From: Candidatus Magasanikiibacteriota bacterium
GTDB taxonomy: Bacteria; Patescibacteriota; Patescibacteriia; Magasanikbacterales; GWA2-37-8
Direction: 5' to 3'
Assembly (NCBI GenBank): GCA_943359595.1
Contig: CALRIA010000002.1
Coordinates: 10,417 to 74,416, forward strand
DNA length: 64,000 nt
Part shown: in pieces, positions 353 through 12,908 of the stretch
Layout: the number at the start of each line of letters is the position of its first letter
How positions within the stretch are numbered: position 1 is the first letter of the stretch
Translations under genes and position numbers: made by a program
The notes under the pieces: generated by a model
What the model was told of the DNA's origin: nothing
Databases searched by the model: none
The model's input: only the letters and a program-made list of their open reading frames with translations

Positions 353-1885
353 ATGAAACTCCAAAATTTAAATAATGGCGATCCGTGGATGTTGGGAGAA
401 GATATACCCAACGCTGATCTTTTTTTCTCCACTATTTGGCTCAATGGCTTTGTGAGTTTTTTTGATCAAAATACCGGTCGAGCTTACAATAAAATTCTTT
501 GTAAATATGAAGGTTATCACCTTTGGTTTTATTTTGGTGATAAAGACGCTCGTGAAGTGGCTGAACATCTGGCTGACAAAATAATAAATGAAGAAGGCTA
601 TGCCAAAGAAGTAAATAAAAATATTATTTTGGAGGCTGATAAACTTCGATCTTTTGCCGAAAAAATTCCTCAAATTAATTTAGCTAAATTATCCAATGAG
701 AATTTGTGGCAAATTTATTCTGACCACAATGGAATTCATGGTAAATATTATACTTGGGCCTGGATTCCGGTGGCAGTTGATATGTTTGGTAATAATTTAA
801 CTAAACGAGTAAAAGATTATTTGTTTCAAAAAGGTGTAGGAAATGATAATATAAACGAATTTTTAGTCATTTTGACCCAGCCAACTAAAAAGTCGCTCAT
901 ATTTATCGAACAAGAAAATTTACTAAAGATTGCGACAACTATAGCAGAAAAATATGAGTCCCTGATAAATATTTTTGAAAATAAGGAATCGGCTTACATT
1001 AAAGATAATTTACCTTTAGATATATTATCTCTAATCACAGAGCATCATGCCAAATATTATTATACAAAACATCTTTGGGTGAGCGGAGAATATAGTATAG
1101 AAGATTATCTGATTCAACTTAAAGATATTTTTAAGACTAAACAATCACCGAAAGTAATATTAGATAAACAATCACAGAAATTGGAAAAATCCAAACAGAA
1201 AAAAGAAAAGTTATTAGAGCATTTACAGATAGATCAGAAGTGGAAAGTGATATTTGAACAGTACGGTGATTTTATGGTCACCAAGATCTACCGTCGTTAT
1301 GCTCAGCTTTTGGCGGTCCATCATATGTCGGCCATACTCAAAGAGATTGCGCGGAGATTTTTTATCACTGAAAAACAGGTTCGTTTTATGAGAGTAAAGG
1401 AAGTAGAGAAAATGCTTTTGGAAAATAAATATAACGAGAGTGAATTATTGGAACGTACAAAGTATTGTGTTTATTACGCGGAGCGTGATGATGAAAAAAT
1501 TTTTATTGGGAATGAAGCCAAAGAAATAATGAAATCAATTGAGAAAGAAGTGGACATAAATATTTCAGAATTAAAAGGAGAAAGCGGTTGTGTTGGTTAT
1601 GCTAAGGGACGAGTGAAGATTATAATTCGTGCCGAAGATATGGCTAAAATGGAAGAAGGGGATATATTGGTCTCAATTGCTACTGATCCAGATATTGTGC
1701 CAGCGATGAAGAAAGCGGCTGGTATTATCACGGAACAAGGTGGGGTAACGTCTCACGCCGCGATTGTTTCGCGTGAATTAGGAATTCCCTGCGTTATCGG
1801 TACAAAAATTGCCACTCAAGTATTTAAAGATGGGGATATGGTTGAAGTGGATGCTAATCGTGGTATTGTTAAGAAAATTTTTTAA
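353..1885 (+). CDS. Paralog P1: variable N-terminal domain + C-terminal PEP-utilizer swivel phosphohistidine domain (Rph/PpsA-like without ATP-grasp)
   Basis: 510 aa. C-terminus GGVTSHAAIVSRELGIPCVIGTKIATQVFKDGDMVEVD. It starts 3 nt after the P0 stop. The N-terminal region shares blocks with the other paralogs (FYFGDKDAREVAEHLADKII; ...TEKQVRFMRVKEV). Confidence 0.75.
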   Translation: MKLQNLNNGDPWMLGEDIPNADLFFSTIWLNGFVSFFDQNTGRAYNKILCKYEGYHLWFYFGDKDAREVAEHLADKIINEEGYAKEVNKNIILEADKLRSFAEKIPQINLAKLSNENLWQIYSDHNGIHGKYYTWAWIPVAVDMFGNNLTKRVKDYLFQKGVGNDNINEFLVILTQPTKKSLIFIEQENLLKIATTIAEKYESLINIFENKESAYIKDNLPLDILSLITEHHAKYYYTKHLWVSGEYSIEDYLIQLKDIFKTKQSPKVILDKQSQKLEKSKQKKEKLLEHLQIDQKWKVIFEQYGDFMVTKIYRRYAQLLAVHHMSAILKEIARRFFITEKQVRFMRVKEVEKMLLENKYNESELLERTKYCVYYAERDDEKIFIGNEAKEIMKSIEKEVDINISELKGESGCVGYAKGRVKIIIRAEDMAKMEEGDILVSIATDPDIVPAMKKAAGIITEQGGVTSHAAIVSRELGIPCVIGTKIATQVFKDGDMVEVDANRGIVKKIF

Positions 1886-1891
1886 TTTTTT

Positions 1892-3181
1892 ATGAAACAG
1901 TCACCAAAAGAAAAAATAATAAAACAATTTTCTGCAATGCCTTGGCAACCTTGGTTGCATCGACGTTTTGATCCGTTAGTGACTTATCTCATTATGGTAG
2001 GTGGCACAAGAGAAATATTTAAAACTCAGGGGATAGATGGTGAGTTTCCAATTTCACTTTACGATACCAACGATTGGTATAGTACCCAAGAAATGCTTAG
2101 TTTAGCAAGCAATGAAGCCAAAAGTTTTTTGCAACAAAAAAATATTATTAATTTGACTCATCAATGTGACAATCTTCTTGAATTTAGTCGTACTGCAGTA
2201 GAACAATTATTATCAAATCCAGGTGATCCAAAAAAGGATTATGAACAAGTAATTAAAATTATCACACCATTAAATGTCTATGTTTGGGTAGCACATAGTT
2301 CGGAAGTTTATTATCATGATCTGATTAGCTCAGCTACTTCCGCTTTTGTCACCCCAGAAAAATTAGAAACTTTTATTGGTGACATTAGTTTTCCGGTTAG
2401 AAAAAATTCTCTCGCCTTAATGGAGAATGATATTCGCGCCGGTGAAACTACAAAAGTGCTTTATAAAAAATATGCTTGGATAAAAGCGCGTGGTGGTTTT
2501 AGGCCAGGTTATACGTTGGCAGAAATTCGAGATATTCAAAAGGAAATTTTAAATAAACCGCAAGATAAACATCGTCATGTAGAAGTTCCGCCAGCTTTAG
2601 AACAGGCTGTTGGCGAATTGCAAGAATTGGTATATTTGCGTACATTGCGCACCGATGCGCTTTGGGAATTATATTATCTAGCCCAGCCTATTTTTGATCG
2701 GGCAGCCAAAGCTTTTGGCGTTAGTTCCGTAAAAGATTATATTCCCGAAGAATTATTGAAAGGTAATATAAAGCCAGTGCCAAATAATTACGCTATTTTA
2801 AAAAATTATGACACTATTGTTGTTACTGATCCAATTATCAAATTAAAAAATTCAGAAGTTGCAAATAGTGTACGGGGTGTTGTGGCTTATCGCGGTATTG
2901 TTAGTGGGCCAGTAAAAATTATATTTACTCCTCAAGAAATCAGCAAGGTGGTGACCGGAGATATTCTTGTCACAAATATGACCATACCTGCTTATGTTTC
3001 CGCGATGTACCGCGCTGCCGCATTTGTAACTAACGAGGGAGGTATTACTTGTCATGCCGCTATTCTCGCCCGCGAGCTAAAAAAACCTTGCATCATAGGA
3101 ACCAGAGTAGCTACACAGATTTTTAAAGATGGTGATCTGGTGGAAGTGGACGCTGAAAAAGGAATTGTAAGAAAAATATAA
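1892..3181 (+). CDS. Paralog P2: variable domain + C-terminal PEP-utilizer swivel domain
   Basis: 429 aa. C-terminus GGITCHAAILARELKKPCIIGTRVATQIFKDGDLVEVD. It starts 6 nt after P1. Confidence 0.75.
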   Translation: MKQSPKEKIIKQFSAMPWQPWLHRRFDPLVTYLIMVGGTREIFKTQGIDGEFPISLYDTNDWYSTQEMLSLASNEAKSFLQQKNIINLTHQCDNLLEFSRTAVEQLLSNPGDPKKDYEQVIKIITPLNVYVWVAHSSEVYYHDLISSATSAFVTPEKLETFIGDISFPVRKNSLALMENDIRAGETTKVLYKKYAWIKARGGFRPGYTLAEIRDIQKEILNKPQDKHRHVEVPPALEQAVGELQELVYLRTLRTDALWELYYLAQPIFDRAAKAFGVSSVKDYIPEELLKGNIKPVPNNYAILKNYDTIVVTDPIIKLKNSEVANSVRGVVAYRGIVSGPVKIIFTPQEISKVVTGDILVTNMTIPAYVSAMYRAAAFVTNEGGITCHAAILARELKKPCIIGTRVATQIFKDGDLVEVDAEKGIVRKI

Positions 3182-3204
3182 AAAATAATTCTCTAAAAAG
3201 CAAG

Positions 3205-3229
3205 CACCACCGGATATTAACCGGTGGTG
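3205..3229 (+). terminator. Hairpin downstream of P2 (caccaccgg-atattaa-ccggtggtg), possible intrinsic terminator
   Basis: A 9-bp perfect stem immediately after the P2 stop. The following T-tract is weak, so it may just mark the island boundary. Confidence 0.3.
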
Positions 3230-3305
3230 TATGCACTTTTATGATTTTTCAGAAGGCGGTATGCTCAGGCGGAATGAAAAAACGGTTCCGTTTGAACTTC
3301 TTCAC

Positions 3306-3803
3306 CTAGTTGGTGCCAGTCGCGATGAATTCAATCTTGATCTCGTCGCCATCAACCTTGATCGCGTAGACTGATCCACTTTTGGCTTCCGAAAGTGGAA
3401 TGCCTAGAGCAAGCAGGACTTCGCGACCCGCGCAGATGACGGTCTCATTAGGGAGTTTTTTCAGCTTCGCCCTTAGCGATGGCCCAGCGTCTTCGCCGCT
3501 AGTGCAGGTTTCAAACGCCACCTTGATTCCGCTCGCCAGTACCAGCATCTTTTCGCCGTCGATCAACTCCAGACTGCCACAAGCACCGAAAACAGACGAA
3601 ATCTGCAACCGGACACCAGTGTCGGAATAGCCGAGCTCTTCAGCCACAGCAAAGTGCCGGAGAGCTTCGCCAATACAGACGAGCGGTGGATCGATTACGA
3701 GATGAATCCGCAACGATCGAACGCAGGTTTTGCCGGCAACGGTCATGTCTGGATCAGCACCAGTTTCCTTTTCTCCGTGGGTAACCAGATATAAGGTTTT
3801 CAT
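3306..3803 (-). CDS. SixA/PGAM-like (histidine-phosphatase-superfamily-like) small protein encoded inside GC-rich island A
   Basis: 165 aa from the ATG at 3803; the ORF track starts at a GTG at 3833. N-terminus MKTLYLVTHGEKETGADPDMTVAGKT resembles the RHG-x-x...T-x-x-G signature of SixA-type histidine phosphatases, with Thr in place of Arg. The region is about 57% GC against about 33% for the flanks. Confidence 0.35.
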   Translation of the reverse strand: MKTLYLVTHGEKETGADPDMTVAGKTCVRSLRIHLVIDPPLVCIGEALRHFAVAEELGYSDTGVRLQISSVFGACGSLELIDGEKMLVLASGIKVAFETCTSGEDAGPSLRAKLKKLPNETVICAGREVLLALGIPLSEAKSGSVYAIKVDGDEIKIEFIATGTN

Positions 3804-3995
3804 TTTTGGGCCCTTCTGTTGTATCTTAGACACCCATCATTTTCAAGCCACTCGACTTAAGTTTTTGGGATCTGTTGTAAAAGTGCATTTATTCTGGAAA
3901 GTTGCCTTAGTTAAGGCTTTTTTCACCATAAATAAACATTTTACCTTACCAAAAAATAGTCATTTTGTCAATGTCTGTGTAAATTTATGGCTAAG

Positions 3996-4018
3996 ATATA
4001 GACAAATTTTGTCTATAT
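3996..4018. promoter_or_regulatory. 23-nt perfect palindrome atatagacaaa-t-tttgtctatat about 35 nt upstream of the P3 start
   Basis: Read directly: two 11-nt arms are exact reverse complements around one central nucleotide. It lies in the intergenic gap created by island A, in front of paralog P3. Confidence 0.3.
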
Positions 4019-4049
4019 GATACTATTAAAGTAGTTAAATAAATCATTC

Positions 4050-5402
4050 ATGTTCAAAGCCAGTAAAATTTTTAAATACAGTTGGGAACTTTATGTTTCT
4101 CGTAACGTGTCTGTTTGGCACGATACTTTGCATTTGATAAGAAGTGATTCTGGTTATCATCATTACAAATTAGGTAAAATGTATGTTCAATTTAGAATTC
4201 ATCGTAATTTAGAATCGGATTTTTATTATGCACTTACTGGTAGTCGATCGGCAGAAGATTTTATTGGTCGATTAGAGAAAAATTTAGAAAAAAAAGAATA
4301 TGTTGATTTTCTTAAAAAGGAGTATCGAAAAGATTGCATAAAGTTTTTAGCTCGGTCTAAAAATTTAAAATCTACTACCAAAAGCTTAAAGTCATTTTTA
4401 AATAATTATGGCTATTGTAATGTTCTTTTAGATATAACTTCTCGAGCAAGTAAGATTTTGACCGATAAATTAATGTTTGATTTAAAGGATAATCGAAAGC
4501 GCGATGCTATTATTAGTTATTATGCTGTTCCAAAACAATTAGCACCGATTCAAAAATTAGAAAAAGAAGTGGCGAAATTATATCATGATAAAAATCTAGA
4601 TAAAATAGCTGAAAGATTATGGAAAAAATATTGCTGGATTCCGGTGAGTTTTGTAGGTGAACCTTGGAGTAAAGAATATTTTTTAAATTTGTTAAAAACA
4701 GCTAATAAAAAAGTTTTGAGAATTTCACAAAAACCAAGGGTAAAATTATCCGTTAATTTAAAACATCTTTTATGGGCACTGTCGCAGATAACCTATCTAA
4801 ACGAATATCGTAAGAGCATTTTTTGTCAGGTTAATTTGAATATCCGACCAGTTTTGAATGAAATAGCCAAACGGAGTGGTTTAAAAGATTGGAAGGAAGT
4901 TTCGTTATTGACCCATGAGGAATTAATTTTGGCTTCTGATGGTAAAAATTTTTCTAAGTTGGTGGCGCGTCGTCAAAAAGAAATTTTTGCTGTTCATAAT
5001 ATTGATAGTAATCAACTTCAGGTAGTATATGGATTACCGGTTAAAAAATTTGAAGATAATTTTAAGATAAAAAATACCAACGTATCTGAATTTAGTGGTG
5101 TTGTTGGAAATAAAGGAAAGATTATTGGTGTAGTAAAGATAATTTTAAAACACAGTGATTTTGATAAATTTAAAGATGGCGATATCCTAGTTGCCAACAT
5201 GACATCAGTAGATTATTTACCAATCATGAAAAAGGCCGGCGCGTTTGTCACCGATGAGGGTGGTCTAGCGTGTCATGCGGCGGTGGTAGCGCGCGAATTT
5301 AATTTACCCTGTATTATCGGCACCAAAATTGCTACAGTGGTTTTAAAAGATGGTGATATAGTGGACGTGGACGCCAACAATGGTATAATTAGAAAAATAT
5401 GA
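4050..5402 (+). CDS. Paralog P3: variable domain + C-terminal PEP-utilizer swivel domain
   Basis: 450 aa. C-terminus GGLACHAAVVAREFNLPCIIGTKIATVVLKDGDIVDVD. Shared N-terminal-domain block KIAERLWKKYCWIPVSF. Confidence 0.75.
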   Translation: MFKASKIFKYSWELYVSRNVSVWHDTLHLIRSDSGYHHYKLGKMYVQFRIHRNLESDFYYALTGSRSAEDFIGRLEKNLEKKEYVDFLKKEYRKDCIKFLARSKNLKSTTKSLKSFLNNYGYCNVLLDITSRASKILTDKLMFDLKDNRKRDAIISYYAVPKQLAPIQKLEKEVAKLYHDKNLDKIAERLWKKYCWIPVSFVGEPWSKEYFLNLLKTANKKVLRISQKPRVKLSVNLKHLLWALSQITYLNEYRKSIFCQVNLNIRPVLNEIAKRSGLKDWKEVSLLTHEELILASDGKNFSKLVARRQKEIFAVHNIDSNQLQVVYGLPVKKFEDNFKIKNTNVSEFSGVVGNKGKIIGVVKIILKHSDFDKFKDGDILVANMTSVDYLPIMKKAGAFVTDEGGLACHAAVVAREFNLPCIIGTKIATVVLKDGDIVDVDANNGIIRKI

Positions 5403-6472
5403 AAAAAATTTATTTAGTTTTCACTAGGGATAATAATCAGTGGGTGAATGAAATGGTAGATTTTGTTTTTGTTAATGAATTACCAAAAATTTTTGGCGCC
5501 GGTCTAACAACCCAAATTACCCGTTTTACAGGACGTACTTTTGAATGGTATCGTTTTGTTGAAGAAATGAATAAATTAAAAACGACTGTTATCAGTAAAA
5601 AATCGGTAGATCCTATTTTTCAGAAAAAAAATCAAGTTAAATTTTTAAAAGAAGTTGTCGAATTAAGAAAATTAATTTCTATAAATCCTAAGCGAGTAAA
5701 AAATGATCTTGATTTATTGCAAGAAATAAAAACTAGATTTTTGGATGTGTATCCATTGTATGTTCTAGCGGTTTTTTTGCCTGGGCCTTGGCGCGATGAT
5801 TTTATTGCAGTTCATGGCGGTGGTTCAAAACAAATTTTAAATTTATTATTTAAAAGTCGCGAAGACAGCGAAGGTCTTTTAAAGGAAATAACCAATTTTA
5901 TGCGGTCCTGGCTTGGGCCACAGTTGCAAAAGGTTGGCTACCAGGCTGATTATTTAAAGTTACTTTCCGTATCGGAAGTAGAGGAGTTTGTGAGGCTGAA
6001 AAAAATGCCTCCACATAAGGAGTTAGATCAACGTTTCAAAGGTTTTGTGTATATGTACAGCAGGCTTGTTAAGACCAAAGATTTTAAAGTTTTTCTTAAA
6101 GATGAAAATATTTCTATTGAGACAGAAAATATAGTACTAAATAAAAATAGTTTCACTGGATCAATAGCTTATGCGAGTAAAATTGTGCGCGGCAAAGTTA
6201 AAGTAGTTTTGAATTCAACAGAGATGTTTGGTTTTAAAGAAGATATGATTTTGGTTACTCCTATGACTGCTCCGGAATATTTAGCGATTATGAAAAAGGC
6301 GAAGGCAATTATTACCAACGAAGGTGGAATTACTTGCCATGCCGCGATTGTGGCCCGAGAATTAAAAAAGGCTTGTATTATCGGTACAAAAATCGCCACT
6401 TTTGTTCTAAAAGACGGAGATTTGGTGGAGGTGGATTCTCACAAAGGAATAATTAGAAAAATAAATATTTAA
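5399..6472 (+). CDS. Paralog P4 (short): variable domain + C-terminal PEP-utilizer swivel domain
   Basis: 357 aa. C-terminus GGITCHAAIVARELKKACIIGTKIATFVLKDGDLVEVD. Its ATG overlaps the P3 stop (ATGA), which suggests translational coupling. Confidence 0.7.
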   Translation: MKKIYLVFTRDNNQWVNEMVDFVFVNELPKIFGAGLTTQITRFTGRTFEWYRFVEEMNKLKTTVISKKSVDPIFQKKNQVKFLKEVVELRKLISINPKRVKNDLDLLQEIKTRFLDVYPLYVLAVFLPGPWRDDFIAVHGGGSKQILNLLFKSREDSEGLLKEITNFMRSWLGPQLQKVGYQADYLKLLSVSEVEEFVRLKKMPPHKELDQRFKGFVYMYSRLVKTKDFKVFLKDENISIETENIVLNKNSFTGSIAYASKIVRGKVKVVLNSTEMFGFKEDMILVTPMTAPEYLAIMKKAKAIITNEGGITCHAAIVARELKKACIIGTKIATFVLKDGDLVEVDSHKGIIRKINI

Positions 6473-6473
6473 T

Positions 6474-7936
6474 ATGTTTGAATATATCAAGTCTCACGAA
6501 GAACACTCGGTTACACCTTTGACTATTTCGCCCAATCACAATGCTTGGCCATCAAAGATTTTAAAAAAATTATTGGACGGTCATGAGGTAGGAGAGCAGA
6601 CTTTTTGTATTCACAGAGATCAAGGCCTGGAATTTTATGCCGATCATAATGCTTGGGATAGAGGATCGGATTATTTTTTGGAGAAATTAAAACGAGATAA
6701 AAAAATAGTAAAAGAGGTCTCTTTTAATTCTCACAGGATTGCCGATCAAATTTTAAAGAAAATCAGAAATTTTGAACGTCAAAATATAAAAAAATGGTCC
6801 AACAAAGAAATCACAAAATTTTTATCCAGTAGCTATAAGCTAGGCAATGATCTGTGTGCCTATGGTTTTATCCCGGTAATCTCCGATCATTTTTTTCATA
6901 AATTTACCGATCTCCTCAAATCTATCGTGAAAAATAAAGAAAAAAATATTTCAGTAAAAATGACCGTTCCGGAAATAATTTTTCTTTTGTGTTCTCATTA
7001 TAAACCCGTACCTTCTAAATTGGCTAGAATAAAATTATTAAAACTTTTAAAAAAAATACCAATCAAGAAAAGATAAATAATTATTACTCTGATTGGCATT
7101 GGGTAGGCTTTGGGCAGCTTGGTCCAGGAATTGAACCTCAAGAGTTTTTAGCCGGCGCCGACAGTCTCTTTAAAAATAAACATCTTATAGACAAGGAATT
7201 AAAAGAGTTGATAAATTCTCCAAAAATTTTACAGAAAAAACAAAAAGAATTAATCAACAAATTGCGTTTGAACACTCAAGAGATTTTTTTATTTTCTACC
7301 GCGCGTGAGTTTACTTATCTTAAAGGTTTAAGAATGGAAGTTCTGTTTGGTCTTTGCGCCGCTTGGAGTAAAGCGCTGGACGAAATTTCAATTCGATTAA
7401 AGATGGATAAAAAATTACTTTATTACGCTTCCATGGCGGAATTAAATTCCGCTTTGTCGGGACAACATAGTTTAAATAAAGAAATTTTAAAAGATAGAAG
7501 TAAATTTTGTGTTTGGGTAGCTAATACCGAAAGTACTCAGAAAATTTTAGCTGGCAAAGAAGCCAGAGAATTTTTGAAGACAGTTAAATTTAAAGAAGCT
7601 AAAAAAATTGAAAAAGTTTTGGTTATTCACGGTACGGTCGCGTCGGTGGGATATGCCAAAGGTACAGTGAGAATTGTGAATAAAACTTCAGAAATAAATA
7701 AAGTAAAAGAAGGCGATGTGCTGGTTTCGGTTGCCACTCATCCTGGATTACTTCCCGCCATGAAAAAGGCCTGTGCTTTTGTGACTGATGCCGGTGGTAT
7801 CACTTCGCACGCCGCCATAGTCGCGCGTGAGATGGGTAAGCCGTGTATTATAGGCACTAAAATAGCGACTAAAATTTTAAAAGATGGTGATTTGGTAGAG
7901 CTGGATACTAAGAGAGGGGATATTAAAAAAATATAA
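6474..7936 (+). pseudogene. Paralog P5, disrupted by a frameshift in an A8 homopolymer (7049-7056): N-terminal half 6474-7076 in frame 0, C-terminal half with swivel domain continuing in frame 2 to 7936
   Basis: Frame 2 is open from 7028 through 7936 with no ATG/GTG before the TTG at 7208. The combined length of about 486 aa matches the intact paralogs. Adding one A to the A8 run yields a continuous ORF (...LLKKNTNQEKINNYYSDWHW...). C-terminus GGITSHAAIVAREMGKPCIIGTKIATKILKDGDLVELD. Confidence 0.6.
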
Positions 7937-7946
7937 AAATAATTTT

Positions 7947-9455
7947 TTGAACAATATGACTAAGCACACACAAGGTGATTGGATGATGATGTCTCAGCGT
8001 CAACGCATGAGCCCGTTTCCAAACTATATGTCTATGGAATCGGTTTGCAAAGAGATGAAAAAATTTGTTGGAGTAAATTTAAAAGACGTACTTCTATTTT
8101 TTAAAGGTAACATGATGTTTGCCTTTCAAGATAGTAAAGCCCACGAACAAGCCGGACAAAAAATTGCCAGTAGGATAGAAAAAAATCCACTTATGTATAG
8201 GCGTTTGGTCAAGCAGGAAGAAATTTTTGGAAATAAATTGGTAAAATTTACCAAGTTGGCCGGACAGCAAACGAATAGTAAAACCAGCAATCGTCGTCTG
8301 TATGAGTGGTATACTCAGTATGAAAAAATGTATAAAAATGTTTATGCCACTTATGGCTCGGTTTGGACAATGGAAGATCATCTGGTAGCCAAACTTTATG
8401 ATATTGTTCACAAACGTTGGCAAGATGGCTCTAAAATTAGCAATACTTTGAATAGTTTGACCAAACAACCGCTCGCCATGGTGGCTACTATTGAGCGTCA
8501 AGCGATATTGAAAATGGCGGTAAAAATTTTGTCTTCATCCGGTTTATTAAAATTAGTTCAATCCGGGTCTTTGGAAAATATTAAAAAGAACAAGATATTG
8601 CATAAATTAATATCCACTCACGAAAAGAACTTCTTCTGGATTACCAGAGATTATGAAGATCCAATTTTAACTTATGATGATATTGTCAAAAAATTACAAA
8701 TCATTTTAAAGGAAGATCCTGTCAAACAACAAAAAGAATTAAATGATAGATTAAGTGGCGATTTACGTGAAAGAAAAAAATTGGAAAAAGAATTAAAACT
8801 CAACAAAAAAGAGTTGGCTTTGTTTGCTTCCATGCGCGATGCTGCCAATTTAAAAGAACAGCGTAAAAAATTTGTTTCTCAGTCTTTATATTATTTTGAT
8901 CCGGTTTTAAATGAGATTAGTAAAAGATTATTTTTAACTGTGAAACAGGTAAGATTTTTCCGTACTAGTGATGTTTATGAGGCTTTGGTAAAAAATAAAG
9001 ATTTGACTAGCGAATTAAATGAGCGTTTTAATTTATCAGTGTGGCATTCCAGTACCAATGGTACAAAAGTCACAGTTGGTAAGGAAGCGCAAAAAATATT
9101 TGATGAGTTTTGCCAAGTGGATAAAAATGCAAGCGAATTTACAGGCATGCCGGTGTCGCCAGGGGTGGCACGCGGTCCAGCCAAAATCGTTTTAAATCCA
9201 AATGAATGTGATAAGGTAAATAAAGGGGACATAATTGTAAGTGTTCAGGTGGTGCCAAGTTTTTCGACAGCGATTATTAAGTCAGCTGGTATAGTTTGTG
9301 ATGGTGGCCACGGTATTACTTCCCATCCGGCGACTTTGTCGCGAGAAGCGGGAGTACCGTGCGTGATTCAAACTAGATTTGTGCGCGAAGTGGTAAAAGA
9401 TGGTGATGTACTGGAAGTGGATGGATATAAAGGCATCGTAAAAATAATAAAATAA
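7947..9455 (+). CDS. Paralog P6 (most divergent): variable domain + C-terminal PEP-utilizer swivel domain
   Basis: 502 aa. C-terminus GGHGITSHPATLSREAGVPCVIQTRFVREVVKDGDVLEVD. Shared block LTVKQVRFFRTSDV. Confidence 0.7.
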   Translation: MNNMTKHTQGDWMMMSQRQRMSPFPNYMSMESVCKEMKKFVGVNLKDVLLFFKGNMMFAFQDSKAHEQAGQKIASRIEKNPLMYRRLVKQEEIFGNKLVKFTKLAGQQTNSKTSNRRLYEWYTQYEKMYKNVYATYGSVWTMEDHLVAKLYDIVHKRWQDGSKISNTLNSLTKQPLAMVATIERQAILKMAVKILSSSGLLKLVQSGSLENIKKNKILHKLISTHEKNFFWITRDYEDPILTYDDIVKKLQIILKEDPVKQQKELNDRLSGDLRERKKLEKELKLNKKELALFASMRDAANLKEQRKKFVSQSLYYFDPVLNEISKRLFLTVKQVRFFRTSDVYEALVKNKDLTSELNERFNLSVWHSSTNGTKVTVGKEAQKIFDEFCQVDKNASEFTGMPVSPGVARGPAKIVLNPNECDKVNKGDIIVSVQVVPSFSTAIIKSAGIVCDGGHGITSHPATLSREAGVPCVIQTRFVREVVKDGDVLEVDGYKGIVKIIK

Positions 9456-9469
9456 TTTATAAAAATAAA

Positions 9470-9497
9470 AACAACCTGATTAGTCAGGTTGTTTTTT
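9470..9497 (+). terminator. Rho-independent terminator of the paralog operon
   Basis: A 10-bp perfect stem aacaacctga / tcaggttgtt with loop ttag, followed by TTTT, 15 nt after the P6 stop. Confidence 0.6.
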
Positions 9498-9586
9498 AAA
9501 GCTCAATATTCTTTCGAGAAAAATATTAAGCTCTTGGGGACGCGAATTGCTTCGCGTCCCGTCGAGTGGGTGTACCCCAAAGCCCG

Positions 9587-10219
9587 TCAGTCCAACGGAA
9601 TCTTGAGCGGCTTGGCGCTGATGAAGGTCGCCTTGCCGTCCTTCACCTGGAACGTGGCCAGAACGGACTCGCCCCGGTCGACCAAGTTGTTGGCGATGTC
9701 GAGGACTTCGGCGGCGCTGCGATGGCCATTGAGCCACTGCATTGCCACTTCCATCCGCGCCACGCCGTGGCTGGTGACCAGGACGAACTTGCCGGGGTTG
9801 GCCACGGCGATTTCGGTCAGGGCGGTGGCACCTTCTTCCGCGCGCATCAGCATCAGCTCGTGCAATTCCGGCATCTCGGGCAGACACTTCGCCAGGCTCG
9901 AGTCGTCGTCGTTGCCGAACTGGGACTTCGCCATCTCCTTGAGACGATTCAGGCTGTCGGGTGCCGCGCGCTTGTCGGTCTTGAAGTCGCCCAGGCGGGT
10001 CTCGTTCTCGATCAGCAGCGAGATGCCAGCACCTTCGAGCATGCGTTCGGCAGTGCTGACCGCACGCGGAAGTGGCGAAGAGACGGCCGCTTCAATCTGT
10101 GCGGTCTTGCCCAGGACTTGACCACGCCGCCTGGCGCGGTCTGCGCCTTCGGTCGTGAGGACGTTGTTCTCGTGTTCCTCGTGTCGTGTTAACACGAGAA
10201 TGGTGGTTTTTGTGGGCAT
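9587..10219 (-). CDS. Histidine phosphatase superfamily (phosphoglycerate-mutase-like) protein inside GC-rich island B
   Basis: 210 aa from the ATG at 10219, which is preceded by the strong SD AAGGAGGTG. Motifs LVLTRHEEHE (RHG-like His1 region) and LVTSHGVARM (SHG His2 region). About 60-62% GC against a host value of about 33%. The ORF track start at 10255 is an upstream in-frame ATG. Confidence 0.6.
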   Translation of the reverse strand: MPTKTTILVLTRHEEHENNVLTTEGADRARRRGQVLGKTAQIEAAVSSPLPRAVSTAERMLEGAGISLLIENETRLGDFKTDKRAAPDSLNRLKEMAKSQFGNDDDSSLAKCLPEMPELHELMLMRAEEGATALTEIAVANPGKFVLVTSHGVARMEVAMQWLNGHRSAAEVLDIANNLVDRGESVLATFQVKDGKATFISAKPLKIPLD

Positions 10220-10309
10220 GGCCCACCTCCTTGGTTTAGCTAGAGACGCTAACATCTTCGCCGAAACCCTCGGACGAGAGATCCGGCTTGCCCGGTGACT
10301 GGTTATTCC

Positions 10310-10362
10310 CAGCTTAGTCAGTAACTAGGGATAAAATTTATCTATAGTTACTGACTAAGCTG
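10310..10362. promoter_or_regulatory. 17-bp perfect inverted repeat (cagcttagtcagtaact ...19 nt... agttactgactaagctg) at the right edge of GC island B
   Basis: Read directly. It sits in the divergent region between the island phosphatase gene (minus strand) and the AT-rich leader of the 10621 phosphatase gene. It could be an operator or a mobile-element/insertion boundary. Confidence 0.3.
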
Positions 10363-10620
10363 TGGGGTATTTAATTTTTCAAAGTACACTCACTCATTAT
10401 TGCTGTAGAACACCTATATTTACTGTTAGTAGATACGGTATGCCCATTTTGCAATAACAGTTGAGTATAGCATAAAATAGGGATTTTGTCAATATATTAA
10501 CTGCTTTTTTGGCTAAAGTTAGCTATTTAATTATTAAGGATAGCAATAATATTGGTGACTAGTGGATGGGTATGTTAAAATCCAATCTAAGTATGCTATA
10601 CTTATTATAAGTAATTTTTT

Positions 10621-11436
10621 ATGAGAGAATTTTTTGCCAGCCAAGATAGAGAATTTAATTCAGATATTGAAACAGAAAATGTTCGCGACTTACCAGTCGT
10701 GACGGCTTATATTATTCGTCATGGTGAGACCACGGAAGATAAATTAAATCCGAATCGTAGTTTGACCACAGAAGGCGAGAGTCAAGCCGACGACGCAGCC
10801 GAACAGCTAATCACCGAATTAAATCCACAGACAGACGTTATCCAAATTTTGGATAGCGGTAATCATCGCGCCAATGTGACCGTGGTGAGAATCGCGGAAA
10901 AATTAAAAGCCGCCGGTTTTAATTTTTTTGTTCCTGTACCTAGTGATAAATCCGGAAATCTGCAAGCAGAAAATATTCCTACTACTCCTGAACCAAAATC
11001 ACGTAGCTACAATAAAATTGCGGCCGCTAATATTCCAGATCAATTTAAAAAATTACTGGCTGATCCGGTATTGCACGCTGAGCTTGGACTTGGAAATGAT
11101 ATTCCGGATAAAAGAGTTATGACTTGGTTTATGATTCAAAGAGATGGTATGGAAACTCCACAGCAGGTATTGGAGAGGGTGCGCCAGGGTATGAATGATA
11201 CTCAAAAAAAATTACCTCAGTTAAATAAAGTTTTGTCGCCGGATCAACGCATTGTAGTGGTGGCGGCCGGCAATGCTTCTATGGTTGATTCGGTAGTCAC
11301 TGAAGCTTCCAAAGTTCACCCTAAAGACAGAGGTGGAGAAATTAGTAATTGTGAAGGATTTAAAGTTGATTTCAATTTAGGCGCTGATCCAAAGATTAAT
11401 TTATGGGGAGAAAATATTGAACAATATTCTAAATAA
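10621..11436 (+). CDS. Histidine phosphatase superfamily protein (host-like GC)
   Basis: 271 aa. N-terminal motif AYIIRHGETTED...SLTTEGESQA (RHG signature). Its stop is 8 nt upstream of the ATP-grasp gene, so the two are probably co-transcribed. Confidence 0.6.
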   Translation: MREFFASQDREFNSDIETENVRDLPVVTAYIIRHGETTEDKLNPNRSLTTEGESQADDAAEQLITELNPQTDVIQILDSGNHRANVTVVRIAEKLKAAGFNFFVPVPSDKSGNLQAENIPTTPEPKSRSYNKIAAANIPDQFKKLLADPVLHAELGLGNDIPDKRVMTWFMIQRDGMETPQQVLERVRQGMNDTQKKLPQLNKVLSPDQRIVVVAAGNASMVDSVVTEASKVHPKDRGGEISNCEGFKVDFNLGADPKINLWGENIEQYSK

Positions 11437-11444
11437 ATAAAATT

Positions 11445-12428
11445 ATGTCTCACATCAAATTTTTTAAACAACTTTCAAAAAGCAACGTCGATATCGCCGG
11501 TGGCAAAGGCGCCAGTCTTGGTGAGATGACGCAAGCCAAAATTTCGGTACCGCCTGGTTTTGTAGTTTTATCGGCTGCTTTTGATAGATTTTTACAAGAG
11601 ACTGGTTTAAAGGAAGATATTGTGGCGCAATTAAAAAAAGTTAATCCACAAGATACTAATTCAGTAGATAAAGCGAGTGCTGTAATTCGTGATATGATTC
11701 ACGATAAGTCGATGCCCAAAGATTTGGAAAAAGAAATTTTGGTTGCTTTTAAGAAATTAGATGCTAAATTTGTCGCAGTTCGTAGTAGTGCTACGGCAGA
11801 AGATTCAGCAATAGCTAGTTGGGCTGGTGAGTTGGAAACTTATCTTAATACCGAAAAGAAAGATGTACTAGAAAGAGTAAAACTTTGTTGGTCTTCATTA
11901 TTTACTCCACGGGCTATTTTTTACCGTCATGAAAAAAAATTGATCGATCACTATGTTTCGGTGGCAGTGGTTATCCAAAAAATGATTCAGAGCGAAATAT
12001 CCGGTGTGGCTTTTACCGTTCATCCAGTGACAGAAGATTATGACCAGATGATTATTGAAGCTGGGTTTGGTTTGGGTGAGGCAATAGTTTCAGGACAGAT
12101 TACTCCAGATAGTTATATAATTAGTAAAAGTGAAATGAGTATATTGGATATTAATATTAGTGAACAAAATAGAAAATTAATACGTAAGGTTGGTAAGAAA
12201 AAAGGAGAAGAAGATGAAGAGAATAAATCTAACCATTGGGTTAAGCTTGGCAAGGAAGGTAGTAAACAAAAACTCACTGGTAAACAAATTATTGCAGCAG
12301 CCGAGTTATTTAAAAAAATTGAAAAACACTATAATTTTCCATGTGATATTGAGTGGGCAATGGAAAAAAATAAAGTGTATATCACTCAAAGCCGTCCGAT
12401 TACAACATTAAAAAATAGCCAAATATAG
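11445..12428 (+). CDS. Stand-alone PEP synthase / pyruvate phosphate dikinase N-terminal ATP-grasp (nucleotide-binding) domain protein
   Basis: 327 aa collinear with PpsA residues about 1-340. Motifs IAGGKGASLGEM (PpsA VGGKNASLGEM), VRSSATAEDS (PpsA VRSSATAEDM) and DIEWA...ITQSRP (PpsA DIEWA...VQARP). It ends where PpsA/Rph would continue into the phosphohistidine domain. Confidence 0.85.
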   Translation: MSHIKFFKQLSKSNVDIAGGKGASLGEMTQAKISVPPGFVVLSAAFDRFLQETGLKEDIVAQLKKVNPQDTNSVDKASAVIRDMIHDKSMPKDLEKEILVAFKKLDAKFVAVRSSATAEDSAIASWAGELETYLNTEKKDVLERVKLCWSSLFTPRAIFYRHEKKLIDHYVSVAVVIQKMIQSEISGVAFTVHPVTEDYDQMIIEAGFGLGEAIVSGQITPDSYIISKSEMSILDINISEQNRKLIRKVGKKKGEEDEENKSNHWVKLGKEGSKQKLTGKQIIAAAELFKKIEKHYNFPCDIEWAMEKNKVYITQSRPITTLKNSQI

Positions 12429-12445
12429 CCAAAACAAGTTTAGAT

Positions 12446-12474
12446 TGACAAAAAGATAAAAAGGTGCTATTATA
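12446..12474 (+). promoter_or_regulatory. Sigma-70-type promoter (TTGACA-17nt-TATTAT) for the zinc-ribbon gene
   Basis: Consensus -35 at 12446-12451, a 17-nt spacer, and the -10 at 12469-12474. It is followed by a leader of about 105 nt before the ATG at 12585. Confidence 0.5.
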
Positions 12475-12584
12475 TCGCTAATAACTTGGGCAACAAGAGT
12501 AGGTCAAAAGGCCAAAATATGTTCCCAACTAGGTCGTTTATTTATTTTCCAAACAACATTTTGGAATATATAAGGAATAATATT

Positions 12585-12908
12585 ATGGCTTTTGGATCTG
12601 ATAGACAAATGTACGATGTAGACTTGACTTGCGCAAAATGCGGAGCTCACATCTCACAGTTGCCTTTCCAACCTTCAGGTGATCGCCCAGTTTACTGCTC
12701 CGACTGTAACCGTGCTTTCCGCAAGGATCGTCCAGCTACAGATCGTGGTGGACGCGCTGGCGGTTTTTCCCAAGCTCCTCGCCAGATGTACAGTGTCAAC
12801 TTGAACTGCGCATCTTGTGGTCAGCAGATTTCTGAGTTGCCTTTCCAACCAACTGGTGACAAACCAGTATATTGCCGAGACTGCATGCAGGCTCGTCGCA
12901 ATGGTTAA
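12585..12908 (+). CDS. Small protein with two tandem CxxC-x17-CxxC zinc-ribbon repeats joined by an Arg/Gly-rich linker
   Basis: 107 aa. The repeats are MYDVDLTCAKCGAHISQLPFQPSGDRPVYCSDC and MYSVNLNCASCGQQISELPFQPTGDKPVYCRDC. Linker RKDRPATDRGGRAGGFSQAPRQ. The RBS aaggaataa precedes the ATG. The ORF-track start at 12486 is an upstream in-frame ATG with no RBS. Confidence 0.6.
   Translation: MAFGSDRQMYDVDLTCAKCGAHISQLPFQPSGDRPVYCSDCNRAFRKDRPATDRGGRAGGFSQAPRQMYSVNLNCASCGQQISELPFQPTGDKPVYCRDCMQARRNG

Follow-up and report, generated by a model that had tools for sequence, protein, structure and literature searches.

Introduction

Histidine phosphatases of branch 1 of the superfamily share a catalytic core of Arg-His, a second Arg and a C-terminal His. 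Among them, the His_Phos_1 enzyme SixA removes phosphate from phospho-histidine carriers and catalytic intermediates: NPr of a PTS whose first enzyme carries a PEP-utilizers swivel domain, and Ndk (PMC7948535, PMC6282199, PMC12934123). PhoE and dPGM-like phosphatases (1h2e, 3kkk, 4pza, 6m1x) have the same fold. Rifampin phosphotransferase and PEP synthase-type dikinases combine a PPDK_N ATP-grasp domain with a C-terminal swivel His domain. At the RNA level, 5'-3' closure of the hok and aapA1 type I toxin mRNAs gives stable, translationally inert transcripts that are activated by processing. In Shine-Dalgarno (SD)-blind Bacteroidia, one strongly SD-bearing gene, rpsU (as in Flavobacterium johnsoniae), is translated conditionally, which confines its translation to a particular ribosome state (PMC7797042, PMC13000453).

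We examined a GC-rich gene in a 64,000-nucleotide stretch (hereafter the window; contig CALRIA010000002.1, positions 10,417 to 74,416, assembly GCA_943359595.1) from a Candidatus Magasanikiibacteriota bacterium. An initial annotation, made from the sequence alone, had described a GC-rich island (island B) carrying a PGAM-like histidine phosphatase gene with a strong SD and hairpins at both edges. It read the island as a second, independent foreign insertion carrying the same enzyme class as another GC-rich island (island A) and as the native gene at 10621, and it argued that phosphatase function is selected in this neighbourhood.

A GC-rich island encodes a predicted histidine phosphatase

Every feature described in the initial annotation is present, and its observation is confirmed. 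The stretch at 9530-10309 is about 62% GC in a window of 35.7% GC, with GC rising sharply at 9530 and falling at 10309. The 30-base blocks inside the island are 0.43-0.73 GC and those outside are 0.00-0.40; 300-base windows reach 0.64 against a window mean of 0.357. This is the strongest GC island in the 64 kb.

The minus-strand coding sequence, with its ATG at 10219 and its stop at 9587, encodes a predicted divergent branch-1 histidine phosphatase of 210 aa and contains both motifs that had been named for it, LVLTRHEEHE and LVTSHGVARM. A profile search matched it to Pfam His_Phos_1 (PF00300) with 44.3 bits against a gathering cut-off of 21.7 (E 2.1e-11), covering profile positions 16-173 of 194. 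In 16 aligned sequences, R52 (in SPLPRA) and H151 (in SHGVAR) are invariant and R12 and H13 are at least 90% conserved, although the glycine of the RHG motif is usually glutamate (RHE). The AlphaFold model has a pLDDT of 93.9. Foldseek matched it to PGAM, PhoE, PSP and GpgP with E about 1e-8 and TM 0.5-0.65; 273 PDB matches reached E of 0.001 or better, and all 50 listed are histidine-phosphatase-fold enzymes. The coding sequence is 62.4% GC with a GC3 of 0.81, against about 0.27 otherwise.

We considered whether this is an ordinary metabolic phosphoglycerate mutase or broad-specificity phosphatase that merely happens to lie here. Its best structural and sequence neighbours are PGAM, PhoE, PSP and GpgP, and JGI labels two members "broad specificity phosphatase PhoE". 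However, the protein scores far below every NCBIfam equivalog cut-off: for cofactor-dependent phosphoglycerate mutase (dPGM; NF038349, PRK03482), 26.9 bits against 225, and 17.3 bits against 261; and for SixA (TIGR00249), 18.3 bits against 74.5, although a function like that of SixA remains possible. Only 253 representatives in 1.84 billion reached E of 1e-3 or better, and every located member, including the distant P0027, sits against a swivel-paralog gene. We thus consider this reading very unlikely.

The long plus-strand ORFs overlapping the gene are by-products of composition. Antisense stop counts equalled those of synonymous-codon shuffles, and the frames are interrupted in relatives and not consistently open, which led us to reject an overlapping antisense gene. 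The SD, AAGGAGGTG, lies at 10224-10232 on the minus strand; of 38 surveyed genes in the window, only two others have a match of 5 bases or more. The GC-rich hairpin at 9537-9560 and the inverted repeat at 10310-10362, described as a 17-bp repeat, are both present.

To determine whether the island's junctions could be an assembly artefact, we compared two other assemblies of the same organism (L003 from Logan and L004 from NCBI; L numbers denote fetched loci and assemblies). Both are identical to the window over 1041 bases spanning both junctions, although they may derive from the same reads; this identity left no polymorphism with which to polarise recent substitutions. Homologous junctions also occur in different organisms, in at least 10 other loci from different samples and assemblers. 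Apart from the sharp change in composition, nothing supports a chimera of GC-rich foreign reads and an AT-rich contig, and we regard one as extremely unlikely.

Conserved position and composition of the gene

The interpretation offered in the initial annotation is only partly supported. A recent or independent foreign insertion is not supported, because homologues at 41-70% identity occupy the same position and orientation in all 11 distinct loci examined, including a Magasanikbacteria MAG. They lie on the opposite strand next to an array of swivel-domain (PEP-utilizers) paralogs, and beside a stand-alone PPDK_N gene wherever that flank was recovered (8 of the 11). In the window, the array, whose paralogs are the presumed functional partners of the phosphatase, spans 353..9455 (+), with Pfam PF00391 at the C-termini; the swivel matches PEP synthase and the C-terminal swivel of 5fbs/5hv1. 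The PPDK_N (ATP-grasp nucleotide-binding) protein lies at 11445..12428 (+) (PF01326, E 3e-96).

Every copy is more GC-rich than its genome. Gene GC is 62-68% against 36-46% for the genomes in nine loci, and 51-52% in two distant loci; nine copies have a GC3 of 0.81-0.92. The flanking PPDK_N and PEP-utilizers genes are saturated at synonymous sites (pS 0.7-0.8). By contrast, 4-fold sites in the phosphatase gene are 83-98% G/C, against 28% in PPDK_N, even though 38-73% of shared 4-fold sites differ between the window and its relatives. Some force, selective or conversion-like, must therefore be holding the gene about 25-30 GC points above its genome, long after neutral drift should have erased the difference.

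The composition (GC3 0.81), amino-acid usage, strong SD and sharp GC boundaries all look like those of a gene from a GC-rich, SD-using donor. However, the divergence of the gene tracks that of the adjacent PPDK_N gene (Spearman rho 0.80 over 21 non-independent pairs), and it has a host-type AT-rich promoter and leader that are conserved with it. No homologue in a GC-rich context was found among 5.8 billion clusters or 1.84 billion representatives, and none was found in viral contigs. The window has no tRNA gene, and the flanking repeats that we saw are inverted and behave as conserved RNA helices, not insertion scars; no integrase or direct repeats were seen next to the island, albeit without a dedicated scan. 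Taking these results together, we consider a recent foreign insertion very unlikely and the gene an old, conserved one.

Horizontal exchange is partly supported. Loci L001 and L010 have flanks 93-98% identical but a coding body only 54-79% identical, with breakpoints at the start codon and the 3' arm described below. This is an allele swap between homologous loci, not an import from a GC-rich donor. We also considered recurrent replacement, in which the coding body is repeatedly re-imported from an unsampled GC-rich reservoir, such as a host organism or mobile element, with the conserved UTRs as landing pads, and so never has time to drift toward host composition. Besides the swap, this agrees with the observations that phosphatase divergence does not track PPDK_N divergence within the close group and that different cargo genes use the same module. 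However, every homologue located has AT-rich flanks and the same locus context, there were no viral hits, deep divergences do track the host locus, and a reservoir would need the same AT-rich UTR handles. This possibility is therefore unlikely, although less so than a single recent insertion.

A neutral GC-favouring process local to the module, such as GC-biased gene conversion from frequent recombination between modules or alleles or a local mutational bias, would require no selection on the RNA. In its favour are the evidence of allele exchange, the presence of tandem homologous modules that could convert each other, the spread of GC enrichment over all three codon positions and parts of the UTRs, and the lack of a conserved coding-region fold. 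However, the gene-conversion effects reported in bacteria amount to a few percent of GC3, not a shift from 0.27 to 0.85, and the AT-rich parts of the same module (promoter, first half of the leader and AT palindrome), which would be equally exposed to conversion, stay AT-rich. We consider this explanation unlikely as well.

The proposed tie between phosphatase function and this neighbourhood is supported. The family always accompanies the swivel-paralog array. The ordinary-GC gene at 10621..11436 (+), transcribed divergently, encodes a 271-aa SixA-like histidine phosphatase (His_Phos_1 E 2.3e-6; TIGR00249 E 2.6e-7, below its cut-off) and has an ortholog in L011 at 55% identity. HAD-type hydrolase genes sit inside the arrays of L011 and L023. 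As for island A, it gave no Pfam, NCBIfam or hhalign signal, and its structure model was too poor to use (pLDDT 51). None of eight proteins from the locus matched an anti-phage defence profile in PADLOC-DB, and neither the protein nor the 3' element described below has viral relatives; we rejected a phage origin or defence system.

Features of the predicted transcription unit

Further investigation indicated that the edge hairpins belong to a conserved transcription unit on the minus strand, comprising a promoter, a structured leader, the coding sequence and a 3' UTR. A sigma-70-type promoter at 10464..10492, TTGACA-17 nt-TATACT with a TG extension, matches 11 of 12 consensus positions. The motif TTGACAAA-N12-TGNTATANT lies upstream of the phosphatase gene in 13 fetched loci and is visible in L013, L016 and L024.

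The 5' leader of about 240 nt (10220..10457) folds at -87.2 kcal/mol, with z = -6.24 against 200 shuffles. RNAalifold on six relatives gave 56 pairs, 12 of them with compensatory changes; none of 500 shuffles reached this, and slid controls gave 0-2. There were no Rfam 15 matches at the gathering score in the window, and a permissive scan of 9400-10650 gave only sub-threshold hits that look like chance. A covariance model of the leader found it upstream of the orthologs in L015 and L016 (36-38 bits) and upstream of a second GC-rich gene in L007 (60 bits). The module carries a different GC-rich gene in relatives, and probably island A here. For island A and the 167-aa L007 cargo, hhalign probabilities of relatedness to the phosphatase family were below 1%, and there was no Pfam hit.

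The inverted repeat forms a long leader hairpin (10309..10363), which is helix 5 of the consensus structure, with 22 pairs, 8 with changes on both sides, and 97.7% of cells paired. It is also kept with different sequence in L011 and L016. Two small GC-rich leader hairpins and a candidate anti-SD (AUCUCU, 10277-10282) lie at 10260..10295. The hairpin stems change between relatives while their complementarity is kept (CACCGG..CCGG becomes CCAAG..CUUGG in the alignment). The candidate anti-SD is consensus helix 6, with 1 compensatory and 4 one-sided changes, although its partner is not consistent in full-length folds. The SD, AAGGAGGUG (10224-10232), is conserved in relatives and lies beside a hairpin that holds the start codon in its loop (10212-10226), the two together spanning 10212..10232. 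Relatives have GUGGCC-CAU-GGCCAC, whereas the window has GUGGGC-CAU-GCCCAC, a compensatory flip that changes codon 2 from Ala to Pro. The SD is mostly paired in full-length folds, but its pairing partner differs between sequences.

To assess pairing between the transcript ends, we first used RNAduplex with unrestricted internal loops, which was uninformative because shuffles scored as well, and then a contiguous-duplex test and full-length partition-function folds. The 5' arm GAGUGAGUGUACUUU (10381..10395) and the 3' arm GGGGUACACCCACUCGA (9562..9578) form the best 5'/3' duplex in six relatives; no shuffle reached it in five of them, and 1 of 60 did in L009. The pairing is in the MFE of six of six full-length transcripts, with probability 0.74-0.91 (mean probability 0.74 in the 961-nt transcript). 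The 3' arm is invariant in six relatives and unique in the window, although the six close relatives are not independent samples. The arms of L007 module 1 (GAGCGAAUGUACUU / AAGUACAUCGCUC) differ from the HP arms by compensatory changes. In the distant loci L011, L015 and L016, candidates exist at the equivalent positions but are not individually significant.

The edge hairpin at 9537..9560 is a GC-rich 3' UTR hairpin whose stem sequence differs between relatives while complementarity is kept. It is followed at 9501..9535 by a conserved AT-rich imperfect palindrome, AAGAGCUKAAUAUUUUU...AAGAAUAUUGAGC, which is invariant across alleles. This element is present once per module in 13 loci and twice in L005 to L008, L018 and L019, and it is absent from viral contigs. 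A terminator scan identified a bidirectional intrinsic terminator at 9467..9496, shared with the convergent paralog operon, with a 13-pair stem and T and A runs on either side.

By contrast, we found no conserved specific fold in the coding region. RNAalifold on a nine-sequence codon alignment, compared with codon-column shuffles, gave z(E) of 0.14 and z(compensatory) of 0.82. Extra stability of single sequences over synonymous shuffles was modest and uneven (z from +0.6 to -3.5).

Discussion

We favour, with moderate confidence, the view that island B is one conserved transcription unit of a Patescibacteria-type "split dikinase" locus, which holds one PPDK_N ATP-grasp protein and many swivel-domain paralogs. 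From sequence, conservation and predicted folding, we take as shown that the unit has a strong promoter of its own for a transcript of about 1 kb, a highly structured 240-nt leader and a 15-bp helix that joins the leader to the start of the 3' UTR and closes the mRNA, that the start codon sits in a conserved hairpin beside a strong SD in a genome that otherwise hardly uses them, and that the coding sequence is held at a GC3 of about 0.8-0.9 although its synonymous sites have turned over. The rest is inference, including transcription itself, mRNA half-life and enzyme activity. We infer that the GC-rich coding sequence, closing helix and 3' hairpins make a compact, long-lived, poorly translated mRNA whose translation is gated at the leader and SD; this purpose of the GC-richness is not shown. 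We likewise infer from sequence and fold that the protein is a catalytically competent branch-1 histidine phosphatase that removes phosphate from the phospho-histidine of the swivel domains, or from their phosphorylated products, and so resets or limits the relay, although a small-molecule phosphatase or mutase is equally compatible with the fold. In this view, the conserved UTRs also act as recombination handles, allowing the coding body to be swapped between lineages.

A bolder and on balance unlikely possibility is that AT-rich, SD-poor Patescibacteria keep a small class of "compositionally orthogonal" genes, in which a conserved expression module (strong promoter, structured leader, 5'-3' closing helix, 3' hairpins and rare strong SD) carries interchangeable cargo ORFs recoded to a GC3 of 0.6-0.9: the phosphatase, a 167-202-aa protein without detected relatedness to it, and probably island A. 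On this reading, the GC-richness would be selected and would make a closed, nuclease-resistant, translationally silent stored mRNA released on a signal. That would be a previously undescribed mode of post-transcriptional control and a counter-example to the rule that atypical GC marks recent transfer.

Atypical GC content and codon usage are routinely read as evidence of recent horizontal transfer. Here the same anomaly persists at one locus across lineages that are saturated at synonymous sites, and composition-based island callers would therefore mislabel it. The reuse of the unit for different cargo genes, with a covariation-supported leader and an mRNA-closing helix, gives a concrete, testable handle on gene regulation in uncultivated Patescibacteria. 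The locus also links a dedicated histidine phosphatase to an uncharacterised split dikinase system, suggesting a phospho-histidine relay with a built-in reset. Our literature searches found no description of this locus or of maintained GC-rich genes in Patescibacteria.

The protein shares its superfamily and catalytic core with SixA, whose action on phospho-histidine is the role proposed here, but it is about 50 residues longer, with an extra helical insert and a C-terminal beta-hairpin in the model, and its genomic partner is different. PhoE and dPGM-like phosphatases are the best fold matches, at 15-21% identity, whereas the present family is tiny and bound to this locus. As in hok-type mRNAs, a predicted helix between the 5' leader and the 3' end closes the whole mRNA and the translation start region is structured; however, the cargo is a 210-aa enzyme rather than a small hydrophobic toxin, and we identified no antisense RNA gene. 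As with rpsU of F. johnsoniae, a rare strong SD occurs in a genome that otherwise lacks them, but in a different phylum and gene, and no 16S rRNA lies in the window to indicate masking of the anti-SD. Relative to rifampin phosphotransferase and PEP synthase-type dikinases, which combine the ATP-grasp and swivel domains, the ATP-grasp here is a separate protein, and 5-8 paralogs each carry a different, unannotated N-terminal domain.

A GC-rich island encoding a predicted histidine phosphatase

To determine whether the GC-rich island held up as initially annotated, we first examined base composition across the window, which is 35.7% GC overall. Between positions 9530 and 10309, the GC content jumps to about 62%, with 300-base windows reaching 0.64. 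Both edges are sharp, as 30-base blocks are 0.00-0.40 GC outside the island and 0.43-0.73 inside. The only coherent gene lies on the minus strand at 9587-10219 (210 aa, ATG start) and matches Pfam His_Phos_1 with an E-value of 2.1e-11 (44.3 bits against a cut-off of 21.7). By contrast, the two long plus-strand ORFs are side effects of a GC3 of 0.81: the number of antisense stop codons equals that in synonymous-codon shuffles, and the antisense frames are interrupted in relatives. The Shine-Dalgarno (SD) sequence AAGGAGGTG is real and unusual; the genome almost lacks such motifs. Of 38 genes surveyed in the window, only three, including this one, have a match of 5 bases or more to AAGGAGGTGA in the 20 bases upstream, and the matches of the other two are of 5-6 bases. 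No rRNA or tRNA gene lies in the 64 kb. Both of the hairpins that had been described at the island edges are present, and two other assemblies of the same organism are identical over 1041 bases spanning both junctions. Thus, what the initial annotation described in the sequence was confirmed.

Conserved position and maintained composition

The initial annotation interpreted the island as a second, independent foreign insertion carrying a phosphatase whose function is selected in this neighborhood. This interpretation was only partly supported: our data did not support the foreign insertion, whereas they did support the functional linkage of phosphatases to this locus. The protein family is tiny, with 16 clusters found among 5.8 billion and 253 representatives at an E-value of 1e-3 or better among 1.84 billion. 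Every member whose DNA we could fetch lies in the same place, convergent with the last gene of an array of PEP-utilizers (swivel-domain) paralogs, and the stand-alone PPDK_N gene lies on the other side in the 8 of 11 loci where that flank was recovered. These loci (numbered with the prefix L) include a Patescibacteria MAG (L015), a Magasanikbacteria MAG (L016) and the locus of a distant family member, P0027 (L024). Two public MAG records titled Gammaproteobacteria (L014 and L017) also carry this Patescibacteria-type locus; over the region compared, the L017 sequence matches that of the Magasanikbacteria record L016, and these bins are probably mislabelled or contaminated.

In nine of the eleven distinct loci, the gene is 62-68% GC, with GC3 of 0.81-0.92, inside genomes of 36-46% GC, while the two most divergent copies are 51-52% GC against 35-37%. 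The flanking PPDK_N and PEP-utilizers genes are saturated at synonymous sites between these lineages (pS 0.7-0.8); a neutral import would therefore have reached host composition long ago. In the phosphatase gene, 4-fold sites are 83-98% G or C, against 28% in the neighboring PPDK_N gene. Yet 38-73% of shared 4-fold sites differ between the window and its relatives, and we calculated from the composition of these sites that about 60% would differ at saturation. The sites have turned over while staying G or C, indicating that something actively maintains the composition. An unseen GC-rich reservoir, or a process like biased gene conversion, cannot be excluded as an explanation, although both have evidence against them: all contexts found are AT-rich, and the AT-rich parts of the same module stay AT-rich. 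Nonsynonymous divergence of the phosphatase tracks that of PPDK_N overall (rho 0.80 over 21 non-independent pairs) and runs about twice as fast.

Further investigation revealed that local exchange does occur. Loci L001 (10030-10725) and L010 (400-1090) have flanks that are 93-98% identical, but the coding body is only 54-79% identical at the nucleotide level and 54% at the protein level, with breakpoints at the start codon and just before a conserved 3' arm. Similarly, locus L009 shares a 97% identical PEP-utilizers gene with L001 but has a 59% identical phosphatase. Alleles are therefore swapped between homologous loci, which is the part of the transfer idea in the initial annotation that survives.

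Phosphatases of a second superfamily are also recruited to this locus, as HAD-superfamily hydrolase genes sit inside the swivel-paralog arrays of two relatives (L011 5516-6127 and L023 4475-5083). In the window itself, one swivel-domain paralog (6474-7936) appears split into two ORFs, 6474-7076 with no domain hit and 7208-7936 carrying the swivel, separated by a 131-base gap; it may be a disrupted gene or a two-part protein. The zf_Tbcl_2 (treble-clef zinc finger) gene at 12445-12908, which is conserved next to PPDK_N in relatives, is GC-elevated at about 49-51% and has a promoter nearly identical in form to the phosphatase promoter (TTGACAAAA-N12-TGCTATTAT at 12445-12473).

Conserved flanks and predicted RNA structure

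The non-coding flanks are better conserved than the protein. Read on the minus strand, the unit begins with a promoter, TTGACA-17-TATACT with a TG extension (10492-10464), which matches 11 of 12 consensus positions and was found upstream of the gene in 13 loci. It is followed by a leader of about 240 nt (10457-10220), the SD together with a hairpin that presents the start codon in its loop (10232-10212), and the coding sequence. Downstream of the coding sequence lie a 17-base invariant 3' arm (9578-9562), the GC hairpin (9560-9537), whose stem varies between relatives while its complementarity is kept, a conserved AT-rich palindrome (9535-9501) and the bidirectional terminator shared with the paralog operon (9496-9467). 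The start-codon hairpin (10212-10226) is GUGGGC-CAU-GCCCAC in the window and GUGGCC-CAU-GGCCAC in relatives, a compensatory flip that changes codon 2 from Ala to Pro; the RNA helix appears to be preserved at the cost of an amino-acid change.

The window leader folds at -87.2 kcal/mol (z = -6.24). The consensus structure of six sequences has 56 pairs, 12 of them with compensatory changes; none of 500 shuffles reached this, and slid controls gave 0-2. The inverted repeat that had been taken to mark one edge of the island is helix 5 of that structure, with 22 pairs, 8 of them compensatory. A search of Rfam returned no match.

The leader segment GAGUGAGUGUACUUU (10395-10381) is complementary to the 3' arm GGGGUACACCCACUC. 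It is the best 5'/3' duplex in six relatives, with no shuffle reaching it in five of them and 1 of 60 doing so in L009. In partition-function folds of the full transcripts of about 960 nt, this helix spans about 820 nt and is part of the minimum-energy structure in all five phosphatase transcripts tested, with a mean pairing probability of 0.74-0.91. The G-U pairs favor the sense RNA over the antisense strand, which argues for an RNA-level feature rather than a DNA-level one. In the distant loci L011, L015 and L016, candidate pairings exist but are not individually significant.

Reuse of the module with other genes

To search for further copies of the leader, we built a covariance model (R1). 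The model found the leaders of the orthologs in L015 and L016 at 36-38 bits, as well as a second full-length copy in loci L007, L008, L019 and L020 at 60 bits (E 2.5e-13). That copy precedes a different gene (L007 4060-4563, 167 aa), which is 65-70% GC, has no family match and lies in the same orientation. This second unit (L007 3800-4700) lies in tandem upstream of the phosphatase module and has the same promoter type, GC hairpin, AT palindrome and terminator. Its arms, GAGCGAAUGUACUU and AAGUACAUCGCUC, differ from the phosphatase arms by compensatory changes and are predicted to pair with probability 0.87. Locus L005 has an equivalent tandem unit (6900-7700). Taken together, these second modules carry an apparently unrelated 167-202-aa protein of unknown function at 62-70% GC.

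Another GC-rich stretch of the window, island A (3306-3803), appears to be a more diverged example of the module (3205-3971, minus strand). It has a TTGACAAAA promoter (TTGACA at 3971-3966), a 5' arm AUGCACUUUU at 3888-3879, a 3' arm AAAAGUGCAU at 3240-3231, and a GC hairpin at 3229-3205 followed by a T-run, and it occupies an opposite-strand position inside a paralog array, with a GC content of 53-57% against 36%. The arm pair is kept in its only known relative (P0018, locus L023), which is 57% GC in a 36% GC contig and also lies opposite-strand inside a swivel-paralog array, although the arm pairing of island A is not significant by itself.

Predicted structure and family of the protein

The AlphaFold model of the protein is confident (pLDDT 93.9) and matches structures of PGAM, PhoE, phosphoserine phosphatase and glucosyl-3-phosphoglycerate phosphatase, with E-values of about 1e-8, TM of 0.5-0.65 and 15-21% identity. 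R52 and H151 are invariant, and R12 and H13 nearly so. However, the protein falls far below every NCBIfam equivalog cut-off, including those for dPGM, GpmB and SixA. It is a divergent, locus-bound clade of branch-1 histidine phosphatases, not a conventional mutase.

Discussion

The island is a conserved, reusable, compositionally deviant gene module with a predicted regulatory RNA architecture that is supported by covariation and matches no Rfam family. Our analysis established the conserved unit, its maintained composition, the structured leader, the closing helix as a computed fold, the rare SD and a catalytic core that is competent as judged from sequence and model. The way in which the module most likely works, including the catalytic activity itself, is inferred. 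In this view, the GC-rich body, the closing helix and the 3' hairpins would give a compact, long-lived mRNA whose translation start is masked. SD nucleotides are mostly paired in full-length folds, although the partner varies, and the coding region has no conserved specific fold and only modest extra stability over synonymous shuffles. The enzyme, for its part, would remove phosphate from the swivel phospho-histidine or from the products of the relay.

This putative activity has a precedent in SixA, which does this for NPr and for the Ndk intermediate (PMC7948535, PMC6282199, PMC12934123). The lone strong SD recalls rpsU in SD-blind Bacteroidia (PMC7797042, PMC13000453). The predicted closed mRNA, in turn, recalls hok-type transcripts.
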